A stretch of DNA of 64,000 nt from Hadesarchaea archaeon. GTDB taxonomy: Archaea > Hadarchaeota > Hadarchaeia > Hadarchaeales > Hadarchaeaceae. This document shows, one piece after another, positions 1-7,774 of the stretch; position 1 is the first letter of the stretch; each line of letters opens with the position of its first letter. The stretch spans positions 1 through 64,000 of the forward strand of contig JAPDJH010000005.1 of assembly GCA_029259175.1 (NCBI GenBank), written 5' to 3'. Both the position numbers and the translations under genes were made by a program. The notes beneath the pieces were generated by a model that worked only from the letters and a program-made list of their open reading frames with translations, did not search any database and was not told the DNA's origin.

Positions 1-8
1 CTATTATT

Positions 9-872
9 ATGAAAACTCAAAAGAAGGTGAGTAGAAGTATGTCAGGACGTCTGCCATGGGTAGCGGCGGCAGTAGTGATAGTAATAGTAGCAGGATTTGC
101 AGCACTCTACCTCAGCAACCCGACGCCGACTTTCGGAACCATCGGCTTGACCGTGCCGAAGGTCTCCAGCGCGTCTGCAGTGTGGGCCACCCCAGGAACA
201 CCGCTCGGCACGTGGGTAGCGATAACCGGTCCTGCCGAAGGGGCAGACAACTGTGCGATCGAGAACATCTACATCGTGGATAACATCGCACCTAATCAGA
301 CAAACTTTGGAGTAAACATAGGAGAGAAGTACCGAACCAGTTCTGGCACTGACAACATTTGTCTGGATGGTGCATCTGACCCGATCATCGACAACAACAA
401 CGACACCGCAACGATTCCATACGAAGTGCCCTTCAAGATTGTGGTCGCCGCAGTGCTCTGGGCCGACGCAGACATGACTGGCAACAAAGGACCAGATGGA
501 GCGAGGCACGTTGCTTATGTGAATAAGGAGAACGCTTATGTCTACGCGAGCTTCACCGGTGATGGCTTTGACTACAGCTCCGAAAACACATTGCTTACCG
601 GACACGCGTATGCCTTTGAGAACGATAACCCGTGGACCGCAACTGGGAACTACGGTGGGCAGAACGACTCTGGACTAGCACCCTACGGATGGGCAGCCGC
701 TCCAGGTGGTCTCGACAACGTCAAAAACACCGACCTTCCGAACTATGTCGACTACGCGCGCGTTAACTACGTCCTCTGTGACTGCAACAACGCTGCCGGA
801 GGAGACGGAGAATACCAGTTGCCCGCCGGCGGATCGATGAACATCGACGTCACCCTGTACGTCTGGGTGTAA
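9..872 (+). CDS. Secreted or membrane-anchored surface protein, putative major filament/matrix subunit
   Basis: Basic N-terminus, hydrophobic helix (PWVAAAVVIVIVAGFAALYL), then a Asn/Asp/Gly/Thr-rich beta-type body. C-ending codons are frequent. Directly upstream of signal peptidase genes and followed by a poly-T tract. Confidence 0.6.
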   Translation: MKTQKKVSRSMSGRLPWVAAAVVIVIVAGFAALYLSNPTPTFGTIGLTVPKVSSASAVWATPGTPLGTWVAITGPAEGADNCAIENIYIVDNIAPNQTNFGVNIGEKYRTSSGTDNICLDGASDPIIDNNNDTATIPYEVPFKIVVAAVLWADADMTGNKGPDGARHVAYVNKENAYVYASFTGDGFDYSSENTLLTGHAYAFENDNPWTATGNYGGQNDSGLAPYGWAAAPGGLDNVKNTDLPNYVDYARVNYVLCDCNNAAGGDGEYQLPAGGSMNIDVTLYVWV

Positions 873-926
873 AAGGGAACCACCCACTTCAAACCCTAAA
901 GCTTTTATTTTTTTTTCTTTATTTTA
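873..926 (+). terminator. Poly-T archaeal terminator
   Basis: gcttttattttttttttctttatttt directly after the stop of 9..872. Confidence 0.55.
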
Positions 927-931
927 AAACA

Positions 932-1360
932 ATGCGAGCATATTTCATTTTGGTCGCTCTTTTAGCAATTACAATGGTGACGGGGGCTACTTGTCAATCC
1001 AACGCTCAACTTAAAGACGCTTCTCAAATATTCGGCGGATTTCAAGCATACGTGGACAACCGGATGGAGTTCGTGACGGTAGAGGGAACCAGCATGGCAC
1101 CAGCTTTCAAGCAAGGAGATACATTGATCGCCATTCCATTTTCCATGAATTCTCTCAAAGTCGGAGACATCGTCGTCTGGGAAACCCAAGGACAGCTCAT
1201 AGCTCACAGGATTTATGAAATCTCACAGGAGCATATCTGGACCAAAGGAGACAACATGCCAGCTCCAGATACTGTGCCTGTGTCCTCTCAAAACTATCGC
1301 TGGCTCGTGCTCGGTGTGCTCTTTACCTCTTCTGAAAGCTGGAAAGAGGAAAAAGCATGA
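932..1360 (+). CDS. Signal peptidase I, S26 family (SipW/Sec11-like Ser-His dyad)
   Basis: N-terminal hydrophobic segment; motifs VEGTSMAP (Ser), GDIVV, IAHRI (His), TKGDN..PD. Confidence 0.85.
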   Translation: MRAYFILVALLAITMVTGATCQSNAQLKDASQIFGGFQAYVDNRMEFVTVEGTSMAPAFKQGDTLIAIPFSMNSLKVGDIVVWETQGQLIAHRIYEISQEHIWTKGDNMPAPDTVPVSSQNYRWLVLGVLFTSSESWKEEKA

Positions 1361-2208
1361 AGAGTAAATACCGAAAAGACTTACCGAAAGTTCTGGTACT
1401 AATCATGCTAGGCATAATAACCTTTGCTTCTGTTTATACCATCCGAACACGTCTCCATCCCCCTTCCCCCATAGTCTTCAATTTGATAAGCCTCGATTTC
1501 AAAACTGATTCCTATGCTAGTCTCCAGCTAGAGTATCTCACAACGGGCAGTTGTACCGCCGCATTGCTAACCCCCAGCGGAGCCGAGGTGGTATCGATCC
1601 TCCTCCAGCCCGGACACTCTATTGTTGAACTCCCACTAACCGAAGGGCTTGAAACATTACGCGAGCCCTATTATGTATTGCGAGTAAAGGGTGGCGGGCA
1701 GATCCTCTACGAGTCTTTTCTCAACCGACCGATGATACTGTATGAATACCGTACCACCAAGTGGGGGTGGAACCCCATCGAAAACAAAAACACAATTCGT
1801 GCTTTCGAAGCACGTCTTTCTAATGTCGGAGATCTCCCGGTCTTTGTCCAGAAAATCCGAGTACGCGTTGGATCCGTCAATCTTGGAGAGTATCCAGTTG
1901 AGCGATGGATCATGCCTGGCAAGCAACATACTCTCTCATATTCTACTTGGTCTGAATCCCTAGAACATCCAAAAACATACTCGGTCACAATTGAGGCATT
2001 GGATATAGACAACGAAAAAATTGAACCGCCTTTGGGACGACGAACTCTTTCTCTCACCGCTCCTCCCGGCAAACCAGTGTATTATTGGGAACGTATTGAG
2101 CAATGGAATGGCATCGCTGAAAACCATTTTGGAGTAGAACACTGGAAGGGGATCATCCGCGCGCCAGTGAGGTGGGAGGTAGCAACACGATGGTGGATAA
2201 GAGGATAA
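1357..2208 (+). CDS. Membrane-anchored hypothetical protein with Ig/CARDB-like beta domains and a Trp-rich C-terminus
   Basis: N-terminal TM; LSNVGDLPV...IMPGKQHTL...YSVTIEA resembles a CARDB/Ig pattern; ATGA overlap with the peptidase gene. Confidence 0.6.
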   Translation: MKSKYRKDLPKVLVLIMLGIITFASVYTIRTRLHPPSPIVFNLISLDFKTDSYASLQLEYLTTGSCTAALLTPSGAEVVSILLQPGHSIVELPLTEGLETLREPYYVLRVKGGGQILYESFLNRPMILYEYRTTKWGWNPIENKNTIRAFEARLSNVGDLPVFVQKIRVRVGSVNLGEYPVERWIMPGKQHTLSYSTWSESLEHPKTYSVTIEALDIDNEKIEPPLGRRTLSLTAPPGKPVYYWERIEQWNGIAENHFGVEHWKGIIRAPVRWEVATRWWIRG

Positions 2209-2651
2209 AACGGCGGAGGCGTCAAAACCTCTGGCTCGTGCCCACTGCCACTGCTATCGTCTTCACCCTAATTCTTGTGGGTATTGTAGTACTTCTTTCT
2301 CCAACTAACAAACCCTATCTAATTAATCGCACACCCTATTTCTACGGGTACGCTGCTTATTTGGATTCAAGAATTGAATTTGCCGTTGCGAGCGACTGGA
2401 ATATGGGAAACACCATTGCCCCGGGGGACACGATCATGTGGGTCAGCGCGCCGCAAGAGAGCATCCACGTCGGAGACATCGTGTACTACAAAGCACCAGA
2501 TTCCGGCAAACTGGTGGCCCAGCGCGTCGTGGACAAAACCGACACCGGCCTCTTAGTTAACGGTGACAACAGCTCATCAGAACCAGTCGAAATCCCATTC
2601 CAAAACTTGCGGGGCCTAGTAATCGGCGTCCTCTACCACAGATCGAGCTGA
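2172..2651 (+). CDS. S26 signal peptidase paralog, predicted catalytically inactive
   Basis: Aligns with 932..1360 (AYLDSRIEF/AYVDNRMEF, GDT, VGDIV, GDN, LVIGVLY), but GTSM is replaced by DWNM and AHR by AQR. Confidence 0.75.
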   Translation: MGGSNTMVDKRIKRRRRQNLWLVPTATAIVFTLILVGIVVLLSPTNKPYLINRTPYFYGYAAYLDSRIEFAVASDWNMGNTIAPGDTIMWVSAPQESIHVGDIVYYKAPDSGKLVAQRVVDKTDTGLLVNGDNSSSEPVEIPFQNLRGLVIGVLYHRSS

Positions 2652-2776
2652 CTGCTCTGAAAAACACTTGGAAAAGGCACCGCCCGGTTTTTTATCTTTT
2701 CACAGTAGTGCTCGAATACTAGTCGGGGAGACGCGTGGCTACTCCCGCAGAAGCCGTTCTCAGCCGCTGGTAGTGG

Positions 2777-3345
2777 ATGCGCTGGTGGCTCAAGCAGAAC
2801 TACAAGAACCTTGGAGGCCACACTCGTTATCGGGCTTGTGGTCGTGTGGTGGTTGCTGCCCAAACTACCCCCTGAAACATGGCCACGAATAACAGGCCCT
2901 ATCATTCAAATCACAAGCCGGCGCGGGTACCTGGCAGTCCCTCTTGGGCAAGAAAGCGGGATAGAACGAATCTATATCGCGCCCACCGGTCATTACGACC
3001 CCTGTAAGGATCTCGCAAAACAAAATGTGCTCGCGACCATCAAGGGAAGCAACCAGACCGTTGCCATTCCGCCTAACACCATATTCGACATCGTGGTCGT
3101 GGTGAGGGCATTCGAGCCCGAAGCCATCGCCTGCGCGTCCAAAGAGAACCTTGCTGTCGGAATCAAAGCAACCGGGACGTTCAAAATACCGTTCAAGTAC
3201 TCCACCGACGACTAAGAGTATGTGTTTGAAAACGAAAACCACGGGTCGCCGCAGGGATACGTTACGGTCAACGTGGTGTGGGACAACTACGGTTGGGGAA
3301 TATTTGCTCCCGGGCAATTAGGTAATGACAATAAATAGATGCCGA
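2777..3345 (+). pseudogene. Disrupted paralog of the 9..872 surface protein
   Basis: IERIYI/IENIYI, FDIVV/FKIVV, SKEN/NKEN. After TAA 3213-3215 the frame continues EYVFENEN (cf. AYAFENDN) and TVNVVWD; after a frameshift near 3298 it reads EYLLPGN*VMTI (cf. EYQLPAGGSMNI). Probable ATG 2777 is out of frame. Confidence 0.7.
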
Positions 3346-3524
3346 AATCGAAAAATAGATGATACAAACATCAAAATGATCGCTGTGGTAAAAATGAATA
3401 TCAAAAATGATTGTCTCTATTTTTAACAATACATAACTCTCTCCAATAATCGTGATCACCATTTCATTAGTTCTCATTTTTCTCCTAACGACAAAAATCT
3501 TTTAGGAGTTGAACATAACACTCA

Positions 3525-3860
3525 TTGAGGCTGATGGGCCTGGGGGTTTTGAGATTTGCTAGTTTGATGATTGTAGCGCTTTTCTTTACGAGCATGTTCT
3601 TCACCCCCGTGCAGGCCCAAAACAGAGGTGAAGACACCCCATTAGCTGAAAACAGCGTTGAAAGGAGTAACTTTGCCTTGGGCTCCAATTACGAAGATCG
3701 GTGGTCAGACAGACACGGAACCAACAAAAGCTTCATCCCGCCGGGCCGCGAGCGCAGGAACTCCAACCCATCTGACCACGTGAAAACCCCGTCCAGTCAT
3801 ACTAAGAAAACCTCTAAACCCAGCGAACCCACTCCTTCTGGTAAAGGGAAAAAGCGCTAG
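3525..3860 (+). CDS. Small secreted, basic, low-complexity hypothetical protein
   Basis: Signal-peptide-like N-terminus ending VQA; Ser/Pro/Lys-rich tail. Start may be ATG 3534. Confidence 0.45.
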   Translation: MRLMGLGVLRFASLMIVALFFTSMFFTPVQAQNRGEDTPLAENSVERSNFALGSNYEDRWSDRHGTNKSFIPPGRERRNSNPSDHVKTPSSHTKKTSKPSEPTPSGKGKKR

Positions 3861-3874
3861 CAGAGGGGCATTGA

Positions 3875-4525
3875 ATGAAAAAGATCGACCGCATCTACCG
3901 TGAGATCCTCCACCGGCACTACACCACTGGTGCGCGCTTCTTCAACCAGAAGGAGATCGCCCGGGTGTGTGGCCTCTCCCTCGGAACCGTCAACCCTGTA
4001 GTCACCAAGCTCGAGCAGATCGGGGTGCTCGAGCGAAAGCCCTTGGGATTCCGCCTCATCGACGCTCGCCGGTTGCTCGTCTACTGGGCGGCCACGCGTG
4101 ACCTCTCCAAGGACATCGTGTACACCACCTTCTCCCCTTCGCGGATTTCGGAAATCGAGCAGGTGCTGTCGACCATGGGGTGTCTCACTGCCTATTCCGC
4201 CTACAAGTGGTTCATGAAGCGAATGCCCGTGGACTACACTCAGGTCTTCGTCTACGCCTCCCCTGAAACGGTCTCCCAGACGTTCAAGCCTTCTCCTAGG
4301 CGCAAGCGCAACATCATCGTGCTGGCCTCCGATGAGCACCTGCTCCGGCTCTCCGAGCACGGATACGTTCCACTCGTCCAGGCGTACGTGGATTTGTGGC
4401 AGCTGGGGGCCCCCGCAAGCCGGCTGGTCGAAGAGCTAGAGCGCGAAATCGCCGCCGCGCCCGCACGGGCCCTAGAACACGTCACCCGCGCCTTCGAAGA
4501 GGAGCCGCCCGAACCCGGCCCCTGA
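3875..4525 (+). CDS. Winged-HTH transcriptional regulator (AbiEi-like architecture possible)
   Basis: FNQKEIARVCGLSLGTVNPVVTKLEQIG HTH; LTAYSAY and VQAYVDLW C-terminal motifs. Confidence 0.7.
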   Translation: MKKIDRIYREILHRHYTTGARFFNQKEIARVCGLSLGTVNPVVTKLEQIGVLERKPLGFRLIDARRLLVYWAATRDLSKDIVYTTFSPSRISEIEQVLSTMGCLTAYSAYKWFMKRMPVDYTQVFVYASPETVSQTFKPSPRRKRNIIVLASDEHLLRLSEHGYVPLVQAYVDLWQLGAPASRLVEELEREIAAAPARALEHVTRAFEEEPPEPGP

Positions 4526-5114
4526 AGCCCTTCGCCATAATGTAAACTTCCGCGCTCGCCTTTCTCGAGGCCCGGGGCTTTGAGACCTTCACGAACTCGA
4601 ACCGCTTGCGGATCTCGGCAACGAGCCCTGGGAACTCCTCCCCCTGAAACACTTTTACGAGCAAGCGCCCCCCGCATCTAAGCACGCGCGAAGCGATGCG
4701 CAGCGCACCGCGCGCCAGCTCCACCGAACGCGCGTGATCCACCGTCCACACGCCGGAGATCTTGGGAGAGGCATCGGACAAAACCACATCGGCCCTGCGC
4801 GGCAGGTTCTCACGCACCAAGTCGGCCGTTTGCTCGTCCAGAATGTCCGCCTCCAAGGTGCGCACGTTTTTCCCCAAGGGGGCGATCGGAACCAGATCGA
4901 CTCCGAGCACAAAACCGCTCTCCCCCACGCGCTCGGCCGCCACTTGCAGCCATCCGCCGGGGGCTGCACCCAAGTCGACCACCACATCACCTTCCTCCAG
5001 CAGCCCGTACCGCTTGTCGAGCTGTATCAGCTTGAAGGCGGCGCGCGACCTGTAACCCATCCGCTTCGCCATCCGGTAGTAGTGCTCACGCTTCCTGTCC
5101 CGCGAGCCGCTCAT
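4482..5114 (-). CDS. rlmE: 23S rRNA 2'-O-methyltransferase RlmE/FtsJ
   Basis: GYRSRAAFKL, VVDLGAAPGGW, VLSDASP, KPRASRKASAEVY. Confidence 0.95.
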   Translation of the reverse strand: MSGSRDRKREHYYRMAKRMGYRSRAAFKLIQLDKRYGLLEEGDVVVDLGAAPGGWLQVAAERVGESGFVLGVDLVPIAPLGKNVRTLEADILDEQTADLVRENLPRRADVVLSDASPKISGVWTVDHARSVELARGALRIASRVLRCGGRLLVKVFQGEEFPGLVAEIRKRFEFVKVSKPRASRKASAEVYIMAKGFRGRVRAAPLRRRG

Positions 5115-5557
5115 GCGAGTCCCTTCACCGGCCTCAGCTTTTCCGCCCGCATTGCCTGGAGCACCTCGCGAACGAGCACATGGAGCTCCGGATGGTAGAA
5201 GAGATGGCTCTCACACCGGCAGTCGCTACACCCGAATCCCGGAACGGATTCGAACCGCTCCGCCAGCCTGCGGGCGATCGCACACTCCTTCGGCTTTTCG
5301 GTGGGCGCAACCACCAAGTCTACCACCCGGCTCCGGAGCAACAAATAGTCCACGTGCCAGTGCAGGGTTTTCTCCTTCCGCATGTGACGCGAAACGCGCT
5401 GGCGCACGCCCCCCAGAGCTGACCCCACATAGGCGTAGTGCCCGCCCTTGAACTGCACGGTGCCCAGAGCACCAATTGGTATGGAAAGGGAGAACGGCAC
5501 TCGGAGAAAAAGCACGTAAACGCCTTTCAGGGCCGAACCCGCTCGCTCTGCGCCCAT
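5111..5557 (-). CDS. GIY-YIG (Uri) nuclease family protein, DUF123-like
   Basis: KGVYVL...YAYVGSA...RVSRH..LHWHVDYLL..GFGCSDCRCESHLFY. Confidence 0.85.
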   Translation of the reverse strand: MGAERAGSALKGVYVLFLRVPFSLSIPIGALGTVQFKGGHYAYVGSALGGVRQRVSRHMRKEKTLHWHVDYLLLRSRVVDLVVAPTEKPKECAIARRLAERFESVPGFGCSDCRCESHLFYHPELHVLVREVLQAMRAEKLRPVKGLA

Positions 5558-6000
5558 GCTCCCTCCTCTGGCTTCTCTCCCACCCAAACCGCTACCCGCT
5601 TCACGTTGGAGTGCCGAACCAGCCTCCGCTCGAGTTCCTCCAGCAAATGCGACGCCATCCGCTCCACCGTGATGTTGTCCACGGGGACCACCGCCACATC
5701 ATCCGCCGGAAACACGAACTCCCGCTGGTGAACGCGGATCACGATTTGGGATCCTCGGGACTCGATCCGAACAGCTGGATTCTTTGCCGGAACGAGAACC
5801 CGGTGATCGTAACGCCCGCACAGCTCCCCCAGAATCGCTGAGAGCTCGTTGAAATCCACGACCAAGCCCCTCTGATCGGGCTCGCCCTCAACCACCGCCT
5901 TCACCTCCCAGTTGTGGCCGTGTAAGTGCTCGCACTTCGTGTGGCCCACCACGAAATGGGCCGCCGAAAATCCGGGGGCCTTGAACTCCAGTCGCGCCAT
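5527..6000 (-). CDS. queD: 6-carboxy-5,6,7,8-tetrahydropterin synthase (QueD/PTPS)
   Basis: FSAAHF, KCEHLHGHNW, GLVVDF, YDHRVL, TVERMA. Confidence 0.88.
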   Translation of the reverse strand: MARLEFKAPGFSAAHFVVGHTKCEHLHGHNWEVKAVVEGEPDQRGLVVDFNELSAILGELCGRYDHRVLVPAKNPAVRIESRGSQIVIRVHQREFVFPADDVAVVPVDNITVERMASHLLEELERRLVRHSNVKRVAVWVGEKPEEGAWAQSERVRP

Positions 6001-6127
6001 ACCATTAAACCAACATATGATGAGAGTAATAAACCCCAAACGCGCTTAAAAACCCATCGTAAAGTTTTTAAGACCTTGTAGAATGGGTTAAATCTTGGTA
6101 GCTACTCTGACTTTGAGGTGATGAATT

Positions 6128-7774
6128 ATGGCGAGTTACTTGGGAGGCCAGCCGGTTCTGATCCTGCCGGAAAAGGTGCAGCGCTATGTGGGGCGGGACG
6201 CCCAGCGCATGAACATCCTTGCGGCGCGGGTGATCGCCGAGGCCATCCGCACCACGCTGGGACCGCGCGGGATGGATAAGATGCTCGTGGACAACCTGGG
6301 CGACGTCACCATCACAAACGACGGAGTAACCATTCTGGACGAGATGGATGTGGAACACCCAGCGGCCAAGATGATGGTGGAGATCTCCAAGGCCCAAGAA
6401 GACGAAGTGGGGGACGGGACCACAACCGCCGTCATTTTGGCCGGCGAGCTGCTCAAAAAGGCCGAGGAGCTACTCGATCAGGACTTCCACCCCAGTGTGA
6501 TCACGAGCGGATACCGGAAAGCCGCCCAGCAGGCGTACAAGATCTTGGAAAAGATCGCAAAACCGGTGACTAAGGAGGACAACAAGCTCCTTAAACAAAT
6601 AGCACTCACGGCCCTGAGCAGCAAGGGGAGCGAGATCCGGGGTGAAAAGCTGGCCACCCTGTGTGTGGATGCCGTTCGCCAGATCGTGCAGGAGGTAAAC
6701 GGGAAGTACAAGGCCGACACCGACGACATCAAGGTGGAGAAGAAAACGGGCGGGAGCTCCGCCGACTCGTTGCTGGTCAAGGGAATCGTGCTCGATAAGG
6801 AGGTCGTTCACCCAGGAATGCCCAAGCGGGTGGAGAAAGCCCGGATCGCCCTGCTGAACTTGGCGCTGGAGGTCAAGGAGACCGAAACCGATGCCAAAAT
6901 CCGCATCACCTCCCCTGAGCAGCTCAAGAGCTTCATAGAGGAAGAGCGCAAGATGCTGAAGGACATGGTGGACAAAATCAAGGAGGTCGGGGCAAACGTG
7001 GTGTTCTGCCAGAAGGGGATCGACGACGTGGCGCAGCACTATCTGGCGAGGGCGGGAATTCTGGCCGCCCGCCGGGTCAAGGAATCCGATATGGAGAAGC
7101 TGGCGAAAGCAACGGGCGGCAAGGTGGTCACCAACATCCGCGATCTCACGGAGAAGGATCTCGGGACTGCCGATTCGGTCGAGGAGCGCAAGGTGGCCGG
7201 TGAGGAGATGATCTTTGTGGAGGGGTGCAAGGACCCGAAAGCCGTCACCATTCTGGTGCGCGGTGGAACGGAGCACGTGGTGGACGAGGTCGAGCGCGCC
7301 GTCCACGATGCCGTCTCGGTGATCGCGGCGGCAATAGAGGACGGCAAAGTGCTGGGTGGTGGCGGAGCTCCAGAAATCGAGGTGTCAAAGGGGCTCCGGA
7401 AATACGCCGAAACAATCGGTGGTCGGGAGGCCATCGCCATCAACCACTTCGCCGATGCGCTGGAGATCATCCCGCGCACCCTCGCCGAGAACGCCGGTAT
7501 GGATCCCATCGACATCTTGGTCCAGCTGAGGGCAACGCACGAGAAACCAAACAACGAGTTCCTCGGATTGGACGTGACCACCGGCAAGGTCGTTAACACG
7601 TTCGAGAAGGGAATCGTCGAGCCGCTCAGAGTAAAGATCCAAGCCATCAAGTCGGCCAGCGAAGTGGCCGAAATGATACTGCGGATAGACGATGTGATCG
7701 CCGCCATCAAGCTGGAGAAGGAAGAAGAGGAGAAAGGCAAGTCCCCGTCTTCACCGCCGGGAATGGAGTACTAG
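6128..7774 (+). CDS. ths: Thermosome subunit (group II chaperonin)
   Basis: [32 protein letters not shown]; GAGGTGA SD upstream. Confidence 0.98.

Follow-up and report, generated by a model that had tools for sequence, protein, structure and literature searches.

Dedicated signal peptidases that serve a single fibre are known from Bacillus, as SipW, and more recently from halophilic archaea, as TafD (PMC9245690 and PMC11821415). In the Bacillus tapA-sipW-tasA operon an S26 peptidase is encoded beside the major subunit, which is secreted and beta-rich, and beside a minor partner with an anchoring role (PMC9245690). TafD is the dedicated signal peptidase I of the Tat-fimbriae (Tafi), and its deletion shows that it is needed for TafA processing (PMC11821415). 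Tafi and taf-like clusters of haloarchaea, Thermococcales and Archaeoglobales are described as encoding small secreted subunits, as two or three paralogs, together with a ~300-amino-acid (aa) protein and a nearby transcription regulator; TafD itself has two domains, four helices and a DUF5305 partner, and the subunits are DUF1102 proteins or Tat substrates (PMC11821415, PMC12337348). The Sulfolobus thread (Saci_0406) and Pyrobaculum AbpA rely on the general signal peptidase and assemble by donor-strand exchange as resolved by cryo-EM (PMC9715654, PMC9245690). Here we describe a gene cluster at the start of contig C4 of a Hadesarchaea archaeon genome (1.3 Mb, 23 contigs, archaeal), the first 64 kb of which are the window analysed. 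It encodes an S26 signal peptidase, SP_A, directly beside a surface subunit of a protein family that we call SUB. With a probability of about 0.5, the cluster is a lineage-specific, strain-variable module in which a dedicated peptidase and its surface subunits build an extracellular structure.

Six open reading frames (ORFs; O1-O6) lie at or near the positions given in a first-pass annotation made from the letters alone, all on the + strand, which bears out its description of a co-oriented six-gene cluster. The genes are closely packed or overlapping, and peptidase and SUB genes overlap or abut. The features are as follows.

O1 / SUB_L: 3..872 (ATG at 9), + strand, large subunit gene, ORF open to base 3 at the contig start
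Internal Shine-Dalgarno (SD) sequence and ATG in O1: 24..41, + strand, AAGGTGA at 24-30 and ATG at 39-41
Poly-T tract after the SUB_L stop: 903..925, + strand, runs of T4, T9, T3 and T4
O2 / SP_A: 932..1360, + strand, 142-aa S26 signal peptidase I
O3: 1357..2208, + strand, 283-aa membrane-anchored protein
O4 / SP_B: 2172..2651, probable start ATG 2190, + strand, S26 paralog
O5 / SUB_S pseudogene: 2709..3338, ORF 2811..3215, + strand, small subunit class
Population breakpoint: 2736, no strand, a variant contig shares DNA from 2736 onward
O6: 3525..3860, + strand, small basic orphan
O7: 3875..4525, + strand, winged-helix (MarR/Crp-like) regulator with Pfam helix-turn-helix (HTH) matches

By its sequence, O2 is an archaeal/endoplasmic reticulum (ER)-type signal peptidase I (S26B) of the active type. 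It scores 67.1 bits against TIGR02228 (cut-off 51.85) and 34.4 against Pfam Peptidase_S24 (cut-off 23.3), and aligns with human SEC11A (7p2p_A, E 3.6e-6) so that SMAPAF, AHR and KGDN..D fall on the catalytic region and Ser, His and Asp are matched, which upholds the assignment of 932..1360 to S26. SEC11A is the closest solved relative of SP_A, with SM.PAF, HR and KGDN..D aligned; SP_A differs in being shorter and in not belonging to a known multi-subunit complex. Its 142 aa carry a single N-terminal hydrophobic segment. Seventeen of 28 dedicated S26 sequences form class A, and the Ser/His/Asp set is retained in all 17. The genome holds seven S26-like genes: two of housekeeping type, on C5 and C3, a divergent third with a C-terminal helix on C3, two SP_A and two SP_B. 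Those outside the cassettes include C3 14399-15622 and C5 81087-81695.

The cluster is not confined to one contig end. On C13 of the same genome lies a diverged second copy of O1-O2-O3-O4 (67, 57, 42 and 45% aa identity). Neighbourhoods were taken from 20 regions; these come from 17 of the 22 relatives that matched, G014, G018, G029, G035 and G039 being left out, and the ORFs of the fetched regions were searched with profiles built in this analysis. SUB genes occupy 22 non-redundant loci, 17 of them with a dedicated S26 gene, and the two lie within 2 kb of each other in 17 of the 21 assessable loci; in L026 the contig ends 122 nucleotides (nt) after the SUB gene. Peptidase and subunit therefore co-occur in relatives, one of the points that the first-pass annotation had named as able to refute its interpretation. 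The usual order is SUB_L - SP_A - SUB_S - SP_B (L013, L014, L018, L020), with variants in L015, L016, L021, L022 and L032 and SUB_L - SP_A only in six loci (L017, L019, L023, L024, L025, L031), and gene order is maintained across three families of the phylum. Because the module recurs on C13 and SUB-peptidase pairs are found in 17 loci, the arrangement is far beyond chance. This linkage also bears on the idea that the peptidases serve other substrates, such as giant surface proteins, and adjoin SUB through synteny without function. Giant Ig-repeat surface proteins do neighbour 11 of the 22 SUB loci. However, the 17 loci with a peptidase include the window, L015, L016, L021, L022, L024 and L032, where the fetched stretch holds no giant neighbour, and peptidase and SUB genes overlap or abut in operons whose order is kept across three families, which makes such an explanation very improbable.

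The subunit itself belongs to no described family, in line with the first-pass annotation, which could not assign it. O1 gave no Pfam match at E <= 1 and no NCBIfam family, and PDB sequence searches with O1 and its profile returned no match. Across 82 members no Pfam family covers the ectodomain among the best 25 of the 41 families matched, and the N-terminus drew only weak zinc-ribbon matches. A word-index search with O1 found 11 proteins, three of them labelled Candidatus Hadarchaeales; a cluster look-up of 10 distant members added one more such label, the others being hypothetical or plainly misnamed. A full profile search of 1.84 billion representatives retrieved 81 SUB proteins at E <= 0.001. 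In six-frame searches SUB was found in 23 of 41 relatives and, at E <= 1e-5, in 34 of 66 genomes of the phylum, spread over three of its six families (f1 25/45, f2 6/6, f5 2/3); at the same threshold it was not found in f3 (0/1), f4 (0/9) or f6 (0/1).

O1 is beta-rich by AlphaFold2 (AF2) secondary structure, with an N-terminal hydrophobic segment and three N-x-S/T sequons, the latter in keeping with a surface protein. The AF2 model built with 82 sequences, at a mean predicted local distance difference test (pLDDT) score of 75.5 and 82-93 in core blocks, predicts an immunoglobulin (Ig)-like beta-sandwich for the ectodomain; the model built with 11 sequences (pLDDT 53.9) was too poor for use. 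Foldseek of the model against PDB gave no match at E <= 0.001, and the matches listed by Foldseek and VIA-align against PDB are Ig-like domains and weak. TasA, AbpA, thread, Tafi and cannula subunits were absent from the listed Foldseek-PDB and VIA-align wide and second-look matches, which does not exclude them. PF12389 (TasA/camelysin) was not found in a six-frame search of this genome, in which a Bacillus control was positive, nor was it among the best 25 of 41 families matched by the 82 SUB relatives; PF06510 (DUF1102) was found in 0 of 41 related genomes, in a search where control genomes were silent too. ESM Atlas leads for O1 to DUF1102 and Peptidase_M73 reached only 0.80 and, with all leads under 0.9, were set aside. 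Sortase pilins of Gram-positive bacteria also count among the closest known systems, through their C-terminal Ig-like domain (Spy0128 3b2m/3gld, PitB 4s3l); O1 carries neither a C-terminal sorting signal nor the conserved isopeptide triad of sortase-assembled pilins.

A lone Ig-like sandwich of generic kind, weakly matched by known folds, is also what might be expected if SUB_L were a surface protein that does not polymerise (for example an adhesin, a phage decoy or a protein associated with an S-layer), and that stays anchored by its helix or is shed by SP_A and forms no filament. The long hydrophobic segment, the conserved cytoplasmic zinc ribbon described below, the giant Ig-repeat proteins adjoining half of the loci and a strain-variable cassette, which would suit an exposed surface antigen, all fit this explanation. 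It is at odds with the combination of a dedicated peptidase, large and small subunit paralogs, a strong private promoter and a terminator, which is the usual layout of fibre loci such as tapA-sipW-tasA and the taf clusters, and with an internal SD/ATG that would give a form with no anchor besides a cleavable peptide. We consider a non-polymerising surface protein possible, though somewhat unlikely.

Set beside the described systems, the cluster resembles tapA-sipW-tasA in placing an archaeal/ER-type S26 enzyme next to a beta-rich secreted subunit and a minor partner with a putative anchoring role. It differs in that SUB has no Peptidase_M73/TasA match and no TasA fold among the listed matches, and in having two peptidase paralogs, one without its nucleophile, and a precursor with a zinc ribbon and an internal start. 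The first-pass annotation had cited SipW-type peptidases beside both Bacillus TasA and the archaeal bundling pili (ABP); the Bacillus half of that precedent stands, whereas the ABP authors report no dedicated signal peptidase gene near the abpA operon (PMC9245690), so that the archaeal half does not hold. TafD is the better archaeal precedent. With Tafi the cluster shares a dedicated S26 enzyme, SUB_L/SUB_S paralogs, a protein of ~300 aa and an HTH gene, O7 homologs being present in 8 of the 22 SUB loci. In contrast to the two-domain, four-helix TafD, SP_A has 142 aa and one hydrophobic segment; O3 and the other cluster genes have no Pfam match, DUF5305 included; SUB matches no Pfam family, unlike the DUF1102 or Tat-substrate subunits of taf clusters; and an inactive peptidase paralog, found here, is not described for Tafi in the relevant portions of PMC11821415 and PMC12337348. 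Thread and AbpA likewise are beta-sandwich subunits that leave the cell through Sec, are processed by signal peptidase I and have a similar minor paralog adjoining, but their peptidase is the general one rather than a dedicated one, and their donor-strand assembly is solved, whereas the SUB data give no sign of donor-strand exchange.

The SUB_L gene encodes more than a secreted domain. O1 is cut by the contig start; since its frame is open at the contig end and SUB_L of relatives opens with a zinc ribbon that starts ~35 codons farther upstream, the real start is not the ATG at 9. The earlier description of gene 1 as a secreted beta-rich protein followed by poly-T holds, and only its start at ATG 9 falls away with the truncation. 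The first 127 bases of O1 equal C13 10083-10209, apparently through an overlap in the assembly graph. Among 30 non-redundant SUB proteins, sixteen have CPRCGYEW...CPRCK at their N-terminus, followed by a linker and the hydrophobic segment. Ribbon codons differ synonymously between SUB_L genes, the ribbon being kept at the protein level, and it is therefore translated too. In L025 (9421-10185) a ribbon-helix-helix domain of the CcdA type stands in place of the ribbon (PF07362, 33.4 bits, cut-off 22.4), with the internal GGAGGTG retained. A stand-alone 141-aa protein of this genome (C2 44574-44996, - strand, in L003) has the SUB_L-type ribbon, linker and hydrophobic segment and, beyond the membrane, nothing but a short tail of low complexity, so that the anchor module also occurs by itself.

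Upstream of the ribbon ATG a TATA-like box lies ~26-33 nt away in 16 of 16 loci (by eye). An SD is absent before that ATG in 14 of the 16, and these two features together suggest a leaderless transcript. Further upstream of the box, a motif with the consensus ATCATAATCATAGTAGTAG (by eye) is conserved in all 16 zinc-ribbon SUB_L loci. The promoter region on C13 is L004 9884-9927, the window's counterpart lying off the contig. The motif is unique within this genome: the 13-mer ATCATAGTAGTAG has one exact and one single-mismatch copy in this genome, both before the C13 SUB_L gene, against 0 exact and 0 one-mismatch copies in a reversed-genome control. The ATCATAATCATAGTAGTAG motif could serve as an operator for O7, the HTH regulator nearby. 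Downstream of SUB_L, T runs of at least 5 follow the stop in 15 of the 15 loci examined, and the poly-T tract is likely an archaeal terminator or attenuator.

A second translation start is conserved inside the gene. In 15 of the 16 zinc-ribbon SUB_L genes, L024 being the exception, an SD of at least 5 bases precedes a conserved in-frame ATG by 8-9 nt; it reads GGAGGTG in fourteen, and AAGGTGA (24-30, ATG 39) in the window. GGAGGTG occurs 375 times in the genome against 159 expected under uniform composition, a rough control, and 100 of the 375 have an ATG or GTG 5-10 nt downstream. The conserved ATG stands immediately before the hydrophobic segment. The internal SD/ATG letters are kept in L031 and L025 as well, but in a different codon phase, and the constraint therefore acts on nucleotides. 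Starting at ATG 39 would give a short form, MSGR followed by LPWVAAAVVIVIVAGFAA..., with a canonical signal peptide; the signal peptide previously drawn from ATG 9 is corrected to this internal start (MSGRLPW...). After the hydrophobic segment most SUB_L proteins have a small residue, a Trp and then Ala or Thr.

A conserved cytoplasmic head in front of a membrane helix raises the alternative that SUB_L, in its long form, is a signalling protein tethered in the membrane, with a nucleic-acid-binding head and an external sensor, SP_A acting as the site-1 protease that initiates its release; signal-peptidase cleavage of the anti-sigma factor RsiV provides an analog. The zinc ribbon conserved at the protein level, the CcdA-type domain (PF07362) in its place in L025 and the stand-alone ribbon-plus-helix protein on C2 would agree with such a role. 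On the other hand, a nearly invariant head is combined with a hypervariable ectodomain, a strong promoter of its own and a terminator flank the gene, a cytoplasmic head is missing from the small paralogs, the internal start would yield a head-less form, and a site-2 protease is not a recurrent neighbour in the 22 loci. A signalling role is accordingly improbable.

SP_B is, on its residues, a conserved pseudo-enzyme. O4, for which an SD (GGTGGGAGGT) at 2171-2180 precedes ATG 2190, is a true paralog of O2 (30% identity, tblastn E 2e-14). The catalytic Ser is replaced by Asn and the His by Gln, and O4 scores 33 bits against TIGR02228, under the cut-off of 51.85. The second S26 gene of the first-pass annotation was thus rightly called a paralog of O2, though it is one that lacks the catalytic Ser and His. 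A search of PDB sequences with O4 gave no signal-peptidase match, SEC11A included, and a word-index search found only O4 itself and one close relative. All 11 class B sequences have G, D, N or E where the Ser would be; the His is kept in 6 of them and the Asp of GDN in all 11. The class forms one clade (support 100/99), with which a long-branch C3 gene with intact Ser and His groups, a placement flagged as unsure. SP_B adjoins SUB_S in 9 of the 11 loci, the other two being C13, with an insertion sequence (IS)-like repeat, and L032, at a contig end.

SUB_S proteins mostly have no small-residue cleavage site and have no cytoplasmic head. O5 is by homology a pseudogene of this separate small paralog class. 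It is related to O1 (hidden Markov model E 1.1e-34) and falls in the SUB_S clade, apart from the O1 branch (Shimodaira-Hasegawa-like approximate likelihood ratio test, SH-aLRT, 98). It begins with neither ATG nor GTG, is interrupted in frame by a TAA at 3213-3215 beyond which homology runs on to 3335, and has lost the last ~19 profile positions, the final strand. A DNA contig from another study and two RNA-library contigs carry this TAA too. What had been called a decayed copy of gene 1 is decayed, then, but is a broken member of SUB_S. On C13 the repeat follows SP_B, in precisely the position expected for SUB_S. The C13 end (L004 12796-12922), the C1 end (249656-249782) and the C23 start (C23 1-1046) are linked through a 127-nt overlap, and C23 looks like part of a repeated mobile element.

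In the model that we favour, SUB_L would be the major product, made from its own conserved promoter and ended at the poly-T stop, and would be exported through the Sec pathway by its N-terminal signal peptide. We infer that SP_A cuts the ectodomain free right after the hydrophobic segment, at ~G-x-W-A before L (in the window, at GFA before A). The freed Ig-like ectodomain may then enter an extracellular structure, for which a polymer or matrix is favoured; this is the weakest step. Two isoforms may arise from the one gene, a long form from the leaderless start with a cytoplasmic zinc ribbon and a short form from the internal SD-led ATG as a canonical pre-protein. SP_B and SUB_S would act as an accessory pair of the same tight operon, SP_B binding SUB_S without cutting it and so providing a membrane-bound base or adaptor. 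In the window SUB_S has decayed and O3 stands at its position in the operon.

Several observations weigh against this model. All of the evidence is computed and consists of homology, catalytic residues, gene linkage and conserved signals, and no cleavage, secretion or filament has been observed. Four loci (L027, L028, L029 and L030) have SUB without a peptidase within ~9 kb, and kin genomes are not independent, so that the locus counts overstate the support. The hydrophobic segment of SUB_L, ~21 residues, has a signal-anchor-like length. As the zinc ribbon is conserved at the protein level, the long anchored form matters, and a simple secreted subunit leaves the ribbon unexplained. Compact SUB members have a simple N-terminal hairpin and, by reading, no obvious extended donor strand. 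Of the two cassettes of this genome, one has a broken SUB_S and the other the IS-like repeat in its stead, so that here the accessory pair is either dispensable or in decay.

A more specific proposal would have one gene supply both anchor and building block, with the long form tethered in the membrane, the abundant short form freed by SP_A and polymerising on it, and SP_B serving as a non-cutting clamp or chaperone for the minor subunit. This is a tentative and unlikely idea; if true, it would be a new, self-contained principle of archaeal fibre assembly based on an enzyme/pseudo-enzyme pair. More broadly, the module would extend the dedicated-peptidase idea to a deep-branching, uncultured archaeal phylum. 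Relative to the published SipW and TafD accounts, in the parts consulted, it adds an unannotated subunit family, a conserved dead peptidase paralog paired with a minor subunit, and a gene whose precursor product has a cytoplasmic zinc ribbon and which carries an internal translation start conserved at the nucleotide level. A full-text literature search found no paper with both 'Hadarchae' and 'signal peptidase' and, among the matches listed, no inactive signal-peptidase paralogs with pilins. The module is a clean case for asking what a pseudo-signal-peptidase does, and its three-to-five-gene size suits heterologous expression, giving a handle on the cell surface of organisms known from metagenomes only.

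The cassette varies within the population. An independent DNA run covers window 18-3900 at >=99%. In another sample a 20,469-nt contig (depth 17.2) shares 2736-3900 and differs upstream, with a loose end before 2736, while the window's form (1579-2765) has a depth of 4.2 and is rarer than the variant. The 30-letter loose end is not in this assembly. Since the more abundant variant differs upstream of 2736, the O1-O4 cassette is polymorphic. RNA-library contigs lie on O1, O3, O4, O5 and O6; as DNA may be present in such libraries, they are weak evidence of expression. None lies on O2, a gap in contig cover that proves nothing.

The O3 start and the SP_A stop overlap (ATGA). By reading, O3 has a hydrophobic segment at its N-terminus; it has no Pfam or NCBIfam match, and a word-index search found only O3 itself. 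ESM Atlas leads to DUF1616 and CARDB were all under 0.9 and were rejected, and an iterated O3 profile drifted to giant Ig-repeat proteins, which were not taken as homologs. In a single-sequence search true O3 homologs occur only on C13, L015 and L016. At its C-terminus O3 carries a Trp-rich stretch of ~40 aa (window 2074-2196), which has no Pfam match and may be a surface-binding repeat. In other genomes this stretch forms tandem repeats in 434-805-aa proteins after SUB_L-SP_A pairs, located as follows.

L017: 11058-14422, protein with O3-type Trp-rich repeats
L025: 11174-13590, protein with O3-type Trp-rich repeats
L019: 11693-13534, protein with O3-type Trp-rich repeats

Upstream on C13, L004 128-4938 holds a second secreted set that includes two PKD-domain proteins (495 and 592 aa) with C-terminal helices and basic tails. 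L004 8379-9881 (- strand) encodes a 500-aa Big_1 protein with a C-terminal cytoplasmic zinc ribbon.

Beyond the cluster lie thermosome, FtsJ, DUF123 and PTPS genes, and the GC content is 0.44-0.55 across the cluster against 0.55-0.65 in the flank. In a check for viral origin, PHROG gave no match for genes 1, 3, 4 and 6, and for gene 2 matched only the S24 fold of CI-like repressors; BFVD gave none at E <= 0.001. Within 1-6200 of the window there are no Rfam families and no notable repeats. O6 has a signal-peptide-like N-terminus, an isoelectric point of 10.5 and low complexity, in keeping with its earlier description as a small secreted basic protein, and has no homologs in the other SUB loci; an RNA-library contig (3436-3817) lies on it. 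Between the pseudogene and O6, window 3216-3524 is AT-rich (GC 0.44) and holds no convincing gene. An RNA-library contig (3158-3454) spans this stretch, and one sample has a 16-nt deletion at 3414.

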